Source: Burkholderiales bacterium 70-64 (GTDB lineage Bacteria; Pseudomonadota; Gammaproteobacteria; Burkholderiales; Burkholderiaceae_E). Taken from it: a stretch of DNA of 32,000 nt. Numbering within the stretch: the first letter of the stretch is position 1; each line of letters starts with the position of its first letter. Below the pieces are notes generated by a model. The model did no database searches and was not told the DNA's origin. It saw only the letters and a list, made by a program, of their open reading frames with translations. The position numbers and the translations under genes are program-made. The DNA lies in assembly GCA_001898645.1 (NCBI GenBank), contig MKUQ01000022.1, forward strand, positions 82,443 through 114,442, read 5' to 3'. Shown piece after piece: positions 16,591 to 22,710 of the stretch.

Positions 16591-17401
16591 CCAGCTCCAC
16601 AGCCGACTCCCAACCCGTAAACACACCACCATAGACCTCGCGCGGCGCCTGATCGATCCCCTTGGAGCACCACACACGACGCTCGCCGAGCTCGCCCTCC
16701 TCGGCGTTCTTCGCGATGTATTTGCCCATGTACGCTGCGAGCTTGTGCCGCAGTTTCTTTTCACGCCAAGGGTTGCGCACATCGATGTTGCCATTGTCCG
16801 CACCGACAACCGAGCGCCACACCGCCCTTACCAACCGATAGTTCTGCCGACCAGACACCGCGACGTGCATATGCCATGCACCGCGCCGCTGCCGCTCATG
16901 AGTCGCAACGTATTGGAATCCCGTTACAACGTAACGCCGTAGACGACGGACGAACTCCTGCCAGTCCCGAGCGAGACGCTTGCGGTCCGTCATGCATTCG
17001 CGATAGGTCAAGGTCAGCATCCGGTCCGCCTTGATAGCCTTCAGGCGCGCGGCGCACTCCACCCGCGCCCGCCGTGCCGCCCGCTCCCGATGCTCAGCGC
17101 GACGGCGATCGAAGTCGATCCGGGCATCGCGCCACGCGCAATACGCCTCCAGATCGAAGGCCTCATCCCACGGCCCGGGGTCGACCAAGCGAGCCGATCC
17201 GCGCATGGCCACCGCCGACCCCCTACGAGCCGCCGCAGCGGCCATCAAGGCCCCCTCGGCACACGTCGGCGTCCGACGGTCATAGCGCTGCACCATGACC
17301 TCCCGCTCGCCATCGCCAAAATCCCGGATCGATAGCGTGTAGCTATCGACAAAGGCCCTGTGATCGGGCATGATGCCCGTGTCGTCTGACTGCACGTCCA
17401 A
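16499..17401 (-). CDS. rolling-circle replication initiator (HUH endonuclease, filamentous-phage gpII-like)
   Basis: HUH motif (AWHMHVAV) and catalytic Tyr motif (AAYMGKYIAKN). The track start is a TTG. Alternative starts are GTG at 17395 or ATG at 17371. Confidence 0.8.
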   Translation of the reverse strand: MDVQSDDTGIMPDHRAFVDSYTLSIRDFGDGEREVMVQRYDRRTPTCAEGALMAAAAARRGSAVAMRGSARLVDPGPWDEAFDLEAYCAWRDARIDFDRRRAEHRERAARRARVECAARLKAIKADRMLTLTYRECMTDRKRLARDWQEFVRRLRRYVVTGFQYVATHERQRRGAWHMHVAVSGRQNYRLVRAVWRSVVGADNGNIDVRNPWREKKLRHKLAAYMGKYIAKNAEEGELGERRVWCSKGIDQAPREVYGGVFTGWESAVELANGLLDPALPLVAWFSRRREILFLATSNRC

Positions 17402-17417
17402 GCTCGCTCAGATGGCC

Positions 17418-17453
17418 GCCCCGGCAACTCTCACCCTGCCGGGGCATTTTTTT
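17418..17453 (+). terminator. intrinsic-terminator-like hairpin on the plus strand: GCCCCGGCA-N10-TGCCGGGGC followed by A+T7
   Basis: Read directly. It lies just upstream of rep (which is on the other strand). It could also be an origin or packaging hairpin. Confidence 0.5.
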
Positions 17454-17593
17454 ATCCAAATCAACCGGTTACAAGACCGACCCCGCGATCGGCGTCCTGA
17501 CGCCGGCCCTGTCGTGTTGGTTTGTGTCCCCCTTTCAAGTCTAGGCGCCGGCCTGCGGCCGGCGCCCGTCGGCAGAGCCGCCGGGCGCCGCCG

Positions 17594-17830
17594 CTAGCCG
17601 CGCCATTTCAACCACCCCCACAGCAGCAGCAGGATCACGCTCAGGATCGACCAGAGCCAGGACCAAAACTCCCCGACGGCGGCGCCGCGCGGCAGCGGCG
17701 GCCGCCACGGCTTCGACACCCCTCGGCGAATCCGCGCCGGCTCGCCGAACGCATCGTCCAGCGGACCCTCGATCTCCAACGTCTTGCGAGCGAAGCGCTC
17801 GCGGTACCAGTCCCGGTCCATCATGCCCAT
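17594..17830 (-). CDS. small phage membrane protein (78 aa, C-terminal TM)
   Basis: The ATG at 17830 is preceded by GGAGG at 7 nt. The C-terminal segment FWSWLWSILSVILLLLWGWL is hydrophobic. The longer track ORF has an Arg/Gly-rich, implausible N-terminus. Confidence 0.5.
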   Translation of the reverse strand: MGMMDRDWYRERFARKTLEIEGPLDDAFGEPARIRRGVSKPWRPPLPRGAAVGEFWSWLWSILSVILLLLWGWLKWRG

Positions 17831-18119
17831 GGCAGCCTCCAGATCGACGCCAGAGCGATTTTCGGGCGCTGCGCCACGCTCCGCAGGCCTGCGGCGCCCC
17901 GAACGGCCCACGGCGGCCGATACGCGGCCAAGAAGAGGCCCCGACATCCACGGTCGCGCACCGCCCCATGCCCTCGACCGGGCTACGGGCTCGCTCCGCA
18001 AGCCCTACCGGCCGACCCCTCCGGGGCTCCGGGGCAACATGGGGCGGAAATCGACCTACGGCATACCCGCCGATCGATGGCTCCCAGAAACGGAGCGCAA
18101 AAGGCATGCCAGATATTGC

Positions 18120-18211
18120 GTTACTCGATAACTGTGAGATACCGCACATCGGACGATGATTGGATGTTGCGTTACAAAGTAACGTCATATAAGCTATCGT
18201 TACCGGATAAC
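18120..18211. promoter_or_regulatory. cluster of three GTTAC-N3-(G/A)TAAC palindromes (18120-18132, 18171-18183, 18199-18211) in the divergent region upstream of the RHH gene
   Basis: Read directly. One site is perfect and two have one mismatch. Confidence 0.6.
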
Positions 18212-18221
18212 GAAGACGGAT

Positions 18222-18659
18222 ATGAAACAGCCCGAGGACGACAAAACCATCGACCTAGTAACCGCCGAGCAACGGATAGCGAAGCGACTAGAGCAACGGC
18301 TAGGGCGGCGACTCGCCAACGATCCGTCATATGGACCTACCCCGGAGCAGAAAGAGGCGATGCGCAAAGAGAGGCAGCGCGAACTGGCGGCCGCGCGGCA
18401 GGCCAAGTACCGAAAGCGAGCCGAAGCCAAAGGGGACGTGGCCGTAGGACTGATGCTCAGCGGCGACACGGATCGATCGCTCCAGACCCTATGCGTGCAC
18501 CACGGCTGCGATCGGCGGCAGATGATCGAGGCGTTGATATCGCAGGAATTCGCACGAGTGATCAACGAAGAACTCCCCGGCCAAGAATCCACAGCGCTCA
18601 TAGAGGAGACGATATTTGCCCGCACCCGCAAGCACCGAGTGATGCGAGTTACGGAGTAA
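18222..18659 (+). CDS. phage DNA-binding regulator, ribbon-helix-helix-like C-terminal domain
   Basis: 145 aa. A basic Lys/Arg-rich segment is followed by a beta-strand plus two helices (VAVGLMLSGDTDRSLQTLCVHHGCDRRQMIEALISQEF). It is on the opposite strand to the morphogenesis genes, and the antisense ORF looks non-protein-like. Confidence 0.5.
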   Translation: MKQPEDDKTIDLVTAEQRIAKRLEQRLGRRLANDPSYGPTPEQKEAMRKERQRELAAARQAKYRKRAEAKGDVAVGLMLSGDTDRSLQTLCVHHGCDRRQMIEALISQEFARVINEELPGQESTALIEETIFARTRKHRVMRVTE

Positions 18660-21481: not shown

Positions 21482-21802
21482 TCAGCGCCACGACAGAGGC
21501 CTCCGTAACACGTGCACCGACCAGGCGCCCACCCATACGAGCGCCACCAACCAGCCCAACGCCACACCATCGAGCAGATGCCCGGCCTCATCACACGGCC
21601 CGAACGCCACCGCCGGCGCGTCCTGCACCGAGAGCACCACACCCGACTGACGCGTCACGATCTGCCACATCCCGCCTGCCAGCTCGACCGTTGAAATGAC
21701 CGGGGGTGAGCCCGTCGAAACGACCGGACCCACCCCCGACCACATCGCCGCCGCCGCATCGGCAGGCGAGCCGTAGCATTGCCCGCCGAAGAGCGCGCCC
21801 AT
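21482..21802 (-). CDS. phage membrane protein (minor coat candidate)
   Basis: 106 aa with a C-terminal TM (GVALGWLVALVWVGAWSV). It follows the major coat gene. Confidence 0.5.
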   Translation of the reverse strand: MGALFGGQCYGSPADAAAAMWSGVGPVVSTGSPPVISTVELAGGMWQIVTRQSGVVLSVQDAPAVAFGPCDEAGHLLDGVALGWLVALVWVGAWSVHVLRRPLSWR

Positions 21803-21805
21803 GGC

Positions 21806-21997
21806 TTAGCGGACGGCCCTGCGCATGTACAGGAACGCGGCGATCGCCACGACGATGCCGATCACCGTGCCGGCGACCGAGACCGCATCGGACTTCGCAT
21901 CGGTCAGGGCAGTCGTCACCTCCGTCGGCACGGCGGCCATCACCGAGCCCACCGAGCCGGCACCCAGAGCGGCCAGAGCCGCGAGCTTTTTCTTCAT
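21806..21997 (-). CDS. major coat protein (pVIII-like)
   Basis: 63 aa: signal peptide (MKKKLAALAALGAGSVGSVMA), an acidic amphipathic segment, a TM segment and a basic C-terminus (YMRRAVR). GGAGG lies 6 nt upstream. Confidence 0.8.
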   Translation of the reverse strand: MKKKLAALAALGAGSVGSVMAAVPTEVTTALTDAKSDAVSVAGTVIGIVVAIAAFLYMRRAVR

Positions 21998-22065
21998 TTC
22001 AACCTCCAGACGGCCCGAGAAGATCGGACACGCAGCTGGGCCAGTGCTGCGTTACCGGGTAACTG

Positions 22066-22305
22066 CTAGACGATGACCGCCTGAGCGCGCATCGAAGGCA
22101 ACCGCGCCTCCAGCTGCAACCGCTCGACCGTGCGATCCATTTGCCGCTGAGCGGCCGCCCTGCCCTCCTGCGTAGGCGGCCACGCCCATTGCGAGCAGAC
22201 CCACTCGACCGGACCCGGACCACGCGCAGGCTCGCGAAACAACACGAAGCCGTAATGGCCCAGATCGGCCGACAGGCAGACGAAACCGTCATAGGTCATA
22301 ACCAT
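22066..22305 (-). CDS. hypothetical phage protein (79 aa, soluble)
   Basis: ORF with an AGAGGG RBS, located between the ssb-like and coat genes. Confidence 0.45.
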   Translation of the reverse strand: MVMTYDGFVCLSADLGHYGFVLFREPARGPGPVEWVCSQWAWPPTQEGRAAAQRQMDRTVERLQLEARLPSMRAQAVIV

Positions 22306-22334
22306 GACGCGCCCTCTATCGTTACGACGTAACG

Positions 22335-22634
22335 CTATGCCGCCCGCTTCGACGACGGCTCGGCCGCAACAGCCGGCGCGAGCTTCGCCACCACCGCCTC
22401 TACCCTCCCCTCGCGATTGGTCCGCAGGGTGAACAACGCGTCATAGTTGCCCGGCCGGACCTCCTCCTGCCCACGCGGCAGAAGCATCTGCCCGACCGAC
22501 GGTTCGATCACACCGGTCTCCGGATTCGGCGCGTGATAGACGCACTGCGCTTCGGCCAGCGTGTAGGGATTGCCCGTCTTGCGGGAGGTACCGCGCCGGA
22601 CATCGACGCGCAGGATCTGGATCGACAGCTGCAT
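22335..22634 (-). CDS. ssDNA-binding protein (gene V-like)
   Basis: 99 aa. The pattern (GTSRKTGNPYTLAEAQ...LLPRGQEEVRPGNYDALFTLRTNREGRV) resembles inovirus G5P OB-fold proteins. It is the first gene of the structural operon. AAGGGGTGA RBS. Confidence 0.7.
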   Translation of the reverse strand: MQLSIQILRVDVRRGTSRKTGNPYTLAEAQCVYHAPNPETGVIEPSVGQMLLPRGQEEVRPGNYDALFTLRTNREGRVEAVVAKLAPAVAAEPSSKRAA

Positions 22635-22660
22635 AGCTCACCCCTTTCGGTTTAGGATGC

Positions 22661-22710
22661 TGTTACGAAGCTCGCAATTACGAGCCTCGTAACATTACTA
22701 GGAGTGTAAC
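22661..22710. promoter_or_regulatory. divergent control region: 34-bp near-perfect palindrome (22661-22694, arms 13/14 complementary, built on GTTAC/GTAAC) plus ATTAC-N7-GTAAC (22694-22710)
   Basis: Read directly. It occupies most of the 77-nt gap between the ssb start (22634) and the repressor start (22712). Confidence 0.65.

Follow-up and report, generated by a model that had tools for sequence, protein, structure and literature searches.

What reads a 13-bp palindrome of the form GTTAC-N3-GTAAC that is scattered along a single prophage of Burkholderiales bacterium 70-64, and what could be controlled from so many points at once? The stretch of contig MKUQ01000022.1 that we analysed, 32 kb long and called the window hereafter, contains an inovirus prophage in which this palindrome had been noticed from the letters alone, the original prediction being that it forms the operator set of a phage regulator, either a helix-turn-helix (HTH) or a ribbon-helix-helix (RHH) protein. 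The answer we propose, with a probability of about 0.78, is that the palindromes would be double-stranded DNA operators of the prophage's own RHH protein, the predicted 145-residue product of the plus-strand gene at 18222-18659, which is convergent with zot. Comparative sequence evidence shows the coupling of the motif to this gene and the constraint on its half-sites; the binding itself and its regulatory effect are deduced from them.

A pattern search of the window agrees with the original prediction on six exact copies of GTTACNNNGTAAC, beginning at 16923, 18171, 18648, 18797, 22051 and 22321, and on two one-mismatch copies at 18120 and 18199, both of the form GTTAC-N3-ATAAC; it adds a third one-mismatch copy, GTTACTACGTCAC, which had been missed and which lies at 20501 within the g3-like gene. 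The six exact copies compare with 0.01 expected from 100 dinucleotide-preserving shuffles of the window, and the nine copies at up to one mismatch with 0.05 expected. All nine are confined to the ~7-kb dif-integrated prophage. As the prediction had held, no exact copy occurs elsewhere in the window; neither exact nor one-mismatch copies were found in its 25 kb of flanking host DNA. Of the 25 GTTAC/GTAAC pentamers in the window, 22 sit in the prophage, between 16.9 and 22.7 kb.

Three of the sites precede the RHH gene: O1 (GTTACTCGATAAC, 18120-18132, one mismatch) is centred 96 bp before its ATG, in the divergent region that faces orf78 and rep, O2 (GTTACAAAGTAAC, 18171-18183, exact) 45 bp before it and O3 (GTTACCGGATAAC, 18199-18211, one mismatch) 17 bp before it. 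The site at 18648-18660 covers the two stop codons at which the convergent zot and RHH genes overlap; the genes end in ...VTE* on the plus strand and ...VTP* on the minus strand, and each of its half-sites provides one TAA, the stop for zot and for the RHH gene respectively. Further sites are found in the C-terminal coding region of zot (18797-18809, exact, codons CYCVTDQG), in the g3-like gene (20501-20513, GTTACTACGTCAC, one mismatch in the variant half-site GTCAC, 412 bp before the gene end) and in rep (16923-16935, exact, codons RYVVT). The last two stand in the structural operon: the copy at 22321-22333 occupies the 29-bp gap between ssb and orf79, 1 nt past the ssb stop, and is closely followed by the ribosome-binding site of orf79; the exact copy at 22051-22063 lies 2 nt past the orf79 stop, with the start codon of the coat gene 54 bp further downstream. 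The placements first described, in the ssb-orf79 and orf79-coat gaps, over the zot and RHH stops and within rep, thus stand; the position of the 18797 copy inside zot had gone unmentioned.

We looked for the motif in public viral and genome collections with a probe of two copies 5-35 bp apart, and 240 motif-pair loci were among the matches listed. Many of them, from many phyla, encode a small open reading frame (ORF) with an (A/S)xRQxxYRxR basic segment, a short strand and two helices. A family hidden Markov model (HMM), seeded with four proteins and iterated over all stop-to-stop ORFs of 248 loci, matched 44 of the 18,631 ORFs. Motif copies occur within -900/+400 bp of the gene stop for all 44 matches, and in the first pass every one of the 42 matches was at most 80 bp from a motif copy. 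Among the 240 motif-pair loci listed, 40 encode a member of this RHH family. The reverse direction was taken as well, with members that only the protein profile had brought up: immediately ahead of P0088 and of its paralogue, both from Acinetobacter, stand two exact sites each, and P0105, from a hipBA-bearing element, has two exact sites directly upstream, an internal site and a post-stop site.

The layout of the sites is also a property of the family. Two of them usually have their centres some 40 and 12 bp ahead of the start codon, one is often found within the gene, and the last falls on the stop codon or about 16 bp past it; the upstream pair is typically spaced by 26-30 bp, with which the 28 bp between O2 and O3 agrees. 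The 137 unique exact sites of 47 RHH-bearing loci give the longer consensus c-GTTAC-N-S-N-GTAAC-g, with the outer C/G flank present in 58% of the sites and a central C or G in 88%. The claim that the palindromes are an operator set through which a phage regulator acts at many points is supported by this co-occurrence of motif and regulator in both directions of search, with fixed half-sites and a free spacer.

Which of the two regulators goes with the motif was decided among the relatives of the prophage that were reached through ssb homologues. Those which carry the RHH gene after zot, namely the window prophage, L265, L267 and L269, have 9-11 sites each at up to one mismatch, spread over the phage; L265 alone has eight exact copies, for 0.00 expected. 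In an unbiased census of all palindromes of the type 5-N(0-8)-5, GTTAC-N3-GTAAC or its shifted form CGTTA-N5-TAACG comes far on top in three of these four RHH phages, the copies of L269 having mostly one mismatch. No motif site was found in L271-L274 and in L001, all of which keep a YdaS-like HTH gene together with ssb and/or Zot homologues and lack the RHH gene; in L271-L274 the place after zot is taken by a gene for another small helical protein, and no RHH family member was detected in L001. The same census of the RHH-less relatives found no repeated palindrome besides the HTH operators. These sequence comparisons support the view that the 13-bp sites track the RHH protein (18222-18659) and not the 93-residue Cro/YdaS-like HTH protein encoded at 22712-22993: since relatives that keep the HTH gene and lack the RHH gene have no sites, the role of regulator is assigned to the RHH protein, the first of the two options left by the original prediction being dropped. 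The expectation that the motif would be conserved in related inoviruses is likewise confirmed, in L265, L267 and L269.

Conservation reaches down to the individual positions. Close homologues of the RHH protein are few, and their contigs retain motif sites. In L248, whose RHH protein is 44% identical to that of the window over its full length and 52-56% over the shared part, five site positions are kept: those of the three sites ahead of the gene, 51 and 28 bp apart, of the site at the stop codons and of one that lies some 150 bp inside zot. Most of these sites have a different central triplet, and the half-sites are invariant. O1 is conserved in position and half-sites in L247, L248 and L265, and is a perfect palindrome in all three. 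The half-sites of O2 are invariant in four phages around a spacer that reads AAA, AGA, GTA or GAT, and the GATAAC half of O3 is kept in all four relatives. The site at the zot stop is present in the window, L265, L267, L269 and L248, and the one in the C-terminal region of zot stands at the same offset in L248 (+148/+152). At the same offset from the g3 end as in the window, L265 has GTGACGTTGTAAC, with the same GTCAC variant. Each of the four RHH phages has a site a short way ahead of the coat gene, centred 10-60 bp from the start codon, and two or three sites before the RHH gene. Many of the sites of these four phages are centred 3-16 bp past the stops of ssb, orf79, coat, g6, g3 and rep, a bias towards gene boundaries to which the rep site also belongs in L267 and L269, where it is centred 8-14 bp past the rep stop rather than within rep.

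The AlphaFold2 monomer model of the protein, built on 60 homologues, is confident, with a predicted local distance difference test (pLDDT) score of 87, and shows two long N-terminal helices, the second of which (41-70) contains the basic segment ARQAKYRKR, followed by an extended strand (71-80), the two RHH helices (81-94 and 98-117) and a C-terminal helix (121-135). Foldseek superposes the modelled core on CopG-DNA (1ea4) and on Arc-DNA with a target-normalised TM score of 0.85 and 0.8 Å over 38 residues, and in the PDB the profile of the family finds CopG at E 0.007. By its modelled beta-alpha-alpha core the product of 18222-18659 belongs to the RHH (MetJ/Arc/CopG) superfamily. The Pfam domain RHH_1 (PF01402) is matched by 4 of 28 family members, at best with E 3.3e-5.

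The family HMM matches the window protein at 1.4e-20. Against PF10723 (RepB-RCR_reg) it scores 17.8 bits, below the gathering cut-off of 21; sub-threshold or weak matches to PF10723 are found in 10 of the 28 family members, and many database homologues bear a precomputed PF10723 label, so that by sequence the RHH family appears adjacent to or overlapping PF10723 with the window protein below its cut-off. Its NCBIfam score is 17.9 bits for a cut-off of 87, and its sub-threshold matches outside Pfam are to the IncFII RepA2/CopB type (NF010256), the YbfE type (NF008671) and phrog_536, 'transcriptional regulator'. An exhaustive profile search gave 1,726 clusters at 50% identity (E <= 1e-3), most of 80-100 residues and none with an informative name. 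The signature of the family is the basic helix (A/S)xRQxxYRxR ahead of the RHH strand, and the window protein is a long member. The commonest neighbour of the gene is Zot, in 13 of the 47 loci, from several unrelated inovirus lineages of 36-65% GC; integrases and replication proteins are also near.

Two further arrangements of the motif were observed beside family genes. Where the site lies on the gene's own stop codon, the reading GTT ACN NNG TAA gives the C-terminus VTx*; the last operator overlaps the stop in L184, L234, L195, L178, L190, L206, L243, L180 and L098, as at 18648-18660 in the window, and the DNA-binding site would thereby constrain the C-terminus of its proposed binder. A conserved four-site RHH module, its sites about 29, 170 and 130 bp apart, is found repeatedly in genomes of Ralstonia, Cupriavidus, Paraburkholderia and Accumulibacter (L128, L199, L141, L185, L142, L169, L195, L184, L104 and L121); its post-stop site is found inside a longer GC-rich inverted repeat, and it adjoins a tyrosine recombinase in L185 and an IS21-type IstB in L184. 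The 360-kb contig IMGVR_UViG_638275728_000001 has 27 motif copies at each end (L039, L111), in arrays with a 17-bp period at which no RHH family member was detected; these arrays are an unrelated tandem-repeat use of the same palindrome.

The sequence GTTACNNNGTAAC is the high-affinity matS site that MatP of Photorhabdus thracensis recognises as its own, and the MatP dimer reads matS by helix alpha4 and strand beta1 inserted in the major groove (Bürmann et al. 2021, PMC8669397). In the mechanism that we propose, one RHH dimer would bind each palindrome, and its beta-ribbon, probably with the basic helix, would read the major groove in the way that MatP does on this very sequence. O2 and O3, centred 45 and 17 bp before the ATG, would overlap the promoter or leader of the RHH gene and, together with O1 as the third of the upstream operators, bring about its autorepression; O1 and the upstream cluster would probably also control the divergent orf78-rep replication module, in the manner of CopG/CopB-type proteins on plasmids. 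The site on the stop codons of zot and the RHH gene (18648-18660), a place where no intrinsic terminator fits, would act as a protein roadblock or insulator between their convergent transcripts. The sites that abut the stops in ssb-orf79-coat and those in zot, g3 and rep would extend repression across the morphogenesis operon, by roadblock or by the bridging of distant sites, so that the prophage or the replicative form is kept quiet.

Several points weigh against this proposal. About 200 of the 240 motif-pair loci among the matches listed have no detectable RHH family member, which means that the motif also arises by chance in AT-richer DNA or serves other proteins. The intergenic stretch 17831-18221 that holds O1-O3 is conserved overall, at 86% (the mean column identity of the alignment of 17990-18225), and the sites are not singled out in it; only the contrast between variable spacers and invariant half-sites distinguishes O1-O3, from which we take the half-sites to be constrained. 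Scans for sigma-70 and terminator consensuses found nothing that overlaps a motif site and, with no consensus promoter over any site, the geometry of promoter and operator is deduced from distances to start codons alone. The role given above to the sites of the structural operon is speculative, and three of them sit in coding sequence. Finally, both the binding of the RHH protein and its regulatory effect are inferred from co-occurrence and conservation.

Could the RHH protein bind the sites and yet serve mainly an architectural or partition-like function, bridging or clustering the replicative form as MatP, ParG or omega-like proteins do? Nine sites over 7 kb, some in coding regions and identical in sequence to matS, would suit such a function, as would the extra C-terminal helix (121-135) and the long pair of N-terminal helices of this phage subgroup, which could drive the formation of higher oligomers; short family members, moreover, have sites on both sides of their gene at a distance of about 300 bp, which suits looping. 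We nevertheless hold this reading to be improbable, for no partner ATPase is encoded, MatP was not retrieved by Foldseek, and most family members have only two to four sites, placed without exception at the gene itself, in the classic pattern of autoregulation.

That the palindromes act instead as hairpins in the single-stranded genome or in mRNA, for packaging, replication, processing or translational coupling, seems to us highly improbable, although inovirus virion genomes are single-stranded, several sites come directly after stop codons of the structural operon, and a stem of five to six pairs with a 3-nt loop is possible at each copy. The stems have little stability (-1.6 to -4.1 kcal/mol), and three of the six copies were matched or bettered by 10-58 of 200 shuffles, the grounds on which this role was rejected. 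In addition, the loop can have any sequence, copies are absent from the related phages that lack the RHH gene, and the same motif and layout accompany the RHH family on elements other than inoviruses, for example beside integrases and hipBA, 34 of the 47 loci having no Zot neighbour.

The Cro/YdaS-like HTH protein, as the main immunity repressor and the conserved regulator of this phage group, might be thought to own the 13-bp sites, all the more since the divergent promoter region of its gene has palindromes ending in GTTAC/GTAAC. These palindromes, GTTACGAAGCTCG-N6-CGAGCCTCGTAAC and a further GTAAC at 22661-22710, within the control region 22635-22711 between the HTH gene and ssb, are the wider-spaced variants that the original prediction had counted in the network; they exist, but they are not members of it. 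When the HTH-ssb intergenic regions of all relatives are aligned, one palindrome architecture appears with half-sites specific to each phage: GTTAC/GTAAT in the window, CTAACG in L265, GTTAGCG in L267, TTTGCG in L269 and TAAAC in L271. This architecture is found with or without the RHH gene and the 13-bp motif, and its presence in the RHH-less relatives assigns the palindromes at 22661-22710 to the HTH protein: they are its own candidate operators, a separate system whose likeness to the 13-bp motif is partial and limited to this phage. The change of half-sites under a fixed architecture in the window, L265, L267, L269 and L271-L274 looks like a switching of immunity specificity of the Cro/YdaS-like repressor. 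As binder of the 13-bp sites, the HTH protein was rejected on account of this separate architecture and by the five relatives that have its homologue, no RHH gene and zero sites; L265 has eight exact sites and yet uses CTAACG/CGTTAG half-sites in its HTH region, and the 8-bp centre-to-centre spacing of the 13-bp half-sites is short for a classical HTH dimer. The probability that we leave to this reading is very slight. It is scarcely credible that a host factor, MatP-like or another nucleoid protein, reads the sites and that the phage thereby exploits chromosome organisation near dif, even if the motif is a genuine matS variant and the prophage stands at a dif-like site in the terminus region, for the contigs are labelled Burkholderiales and PMC7188993 reports MatP and ZapB from enteric bacteria only, the 25 kb of host DNA in the window have no sites, and the motif follows a phage gene and not a host clade.

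The operators of the RHH protein, as we propose them, lie in a prophage (16049-23042) that differs from its surroundings by a lower GC content and a strongly negative GC skew and is bracketed by dif-like sites. The left one, ATTGCGCATAATGTGTGTTATGTCAAAT (16049-16076), matches E. coli dif at 23 of 28 positions, and the right one (23015-23042), degenerate and with its XerD arm kept, at 18 of 28; this sequence evidence suggests that XerCD integrated the element at the site of chromosome dimer resolution. The gene set and order are those of an inovirus by Pfam and PHROG matches (REP_ORF2-G2P, phrog_3419; phrog_2866 for ssb; Zot, phrog_197; TspB-like g3; DUF2523), and on the minus strand comprise the rolling-circle Rep (16499-17401), the small membrane ORF orf78 (17594-17830), Zot (18649-19710), the DUF2523/g6-like protein (19707-20000), the TspB-like g3 (20095-21432), orf106, a small ORF for a 63-residue coat-like protein (21806-21997), orf79 and the single-stranded DNA-binding protein (ssb, 22335-22634), from which the plus-strand HTH gene diverges. 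The same prophage is present in several metagenome assemblies, including the metagenome-assembled genome GCA_017307875.1, and the contigs of the prophage and of its relatives bear the label Burkholderiales. Isolated phages include no close relative, the only match being one of 73 bp in Rep to Ralstonia inoviruses, and a Zot-based search of species-representative genomes found distant relatives only (at most 41% identity), none of them motif-bearing.

Other features of the prophage and its borders were recorded. A small HTH-like gene is present in two diverged copies (MIGPPR…RIAAND), both on the plus strand, one inside the prophage by the left dif site (16144-16480) and the other just beyond the right dif-like site (23075-23415); this duplication suggests that a related element was there earlier and left a remnant. 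L254, a metagenome contig of 7,068 bp, breaks off precisely at the duplicated gene; it was considered as a circular phage genome and rejected, having no terminal overlap and ending at the repeated flanking gene. Directly to the right of the prophage and the duplicated gene, a MazE (SpoVT/AbrB) and MazF/PemK toxin-antitoxin pair lies at 23431-24053. At 16104-16126, just inside the left dif-like site, GGCCGATGGTATCACCATCGGCC and the T-run after it make up a strong hairpin that resembles a terminator. The region 17831-18110, between the small membrane ORF and the RHH operators, seems highly conserved where RHH identity is only 53-61%, its part outside the alignment mentioned above being judged by eye against L248; with the GC-rich hairpin-forming block GACCCCTCCGGGGCTCCGGGGC that it holds, it is a candidate for the replication origin or the packaging signal.

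How does the predicted system compare with those already known? Systems in which an RHH repressor acts on palindromic operators are familiar, and among the closest examples are CopG of pMV158 and the IncFII CopB/RepA2 and YbfE types, small RHH repressors of rolling-circle or plasmid replication which act on pseudo-palindromic operators in their own promoter. The best matches of the window protein, by sequence as by structure, are to these proteins, and its gene likewise faces a rolling-circle rep module. The window protein differs from them by its extra N-terminal helical hairpin and C-terminal helix, and its nine sites are dispersed and include gene ends of the morphogenesis operon, in contrast to their single operator. 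In the literature we found neither a published operator of PF10723 members that matches the 13-bp motif nor a description of an RHH repressor/operator system in filamentous phages. Arc and Mnt of P22, RstR of CTXphi and Pf4r are small phage repressors with palindromic operators in a divergent control region, and the inovirus regulatory module sits between zot and rep; to our knowledge these systems act at one immunity region, whereas the operator of the window is repeated across the phage genome.

The comparison with MatP, the Ter macrodomain protein of Enterobacterales and Vibrionales, and its matS sites bears on the reading of the site. The 13-bp 5-3-5 palindromic target, of the GTGAC-N3-GTCAC or GTTAC-N3-GTAAC type, is identical to the matS of P. 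thracensis, and the copy at 20501 has the E. coli-matS-type half-site GTCAC; in both systems the RHH strand is preceded by a basic helix (…IRARRKRHF…KSIDLEF… in the translated E. coli MatP gene) and multiple sites are dispersed on one replicon. The two differ in that the phage sites are, at the scale of the window, confined to the 7-kb prophage instead of the chromosomal Ter domain of a MukBEF host, in that no MatP/MukBEF system has been reported for the phage host, a Burkholderiales bacterium, and in the autoregulatory layout around the phage RHH gene. By sequence, CopG is closer to the family than MatP is. Alignments of the family with MatP, which bring the RHH and the basic segment ahead of it onto MatP residues 76-78 to 128-130, are weak (E 0.48 in the PDB-wide HMM search, hhalign probability 20%); as a single pre-specified target HMM, MatP is matched at E 2e-5 over the same residues, which remains a weak similarity. 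Neither the window protein nor the family members match the Pfam MatP domain or its N-terminal four-helix bundle, and MatP is absent from the top 50 Foldseek hits of the RHH model, which are generic RHH proteins only, all at E > 0.3, so that a placement in the MatP family by fold found no backing. MatP is consequently treated here, by analogy, as the closest functional analogue for the reading of the site and not as the RHH protein's own family.

Could the RHH family nevertheless be a 'mini-MatP', sharing ancestry and mode of DNA reading with MatP, so that its inovirus members bridge and compact or silence, or else position, their own replicon by dif through matS-type sites, and MatP/matS would be a domesticated repressor/operator module of mobile elements? 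We consider this rather unlikely. What the analysis does bring, on strong comparative evidence, is the assignment of a specific predicted operator to a large unnamed protein family of about 1,700 clusters, which recurs as a zot-adjacent module in unrelated inoviruses and is found on other mobile elements as well, so that the motif and the family HMM become a useful marker for the annotation of inovirus regulatory modules. It describes an operator dispersed over a whole phage genome, down to the gene ends of the structural operon and a stop-codon site shared by two genes, and offers a model in which one small repressor might govern a temperate filamentous phage from many points. This operator being identical to a genuine matS variant, it also links a repressor family of mobile elements with MatP, the organiser of the chromosome.

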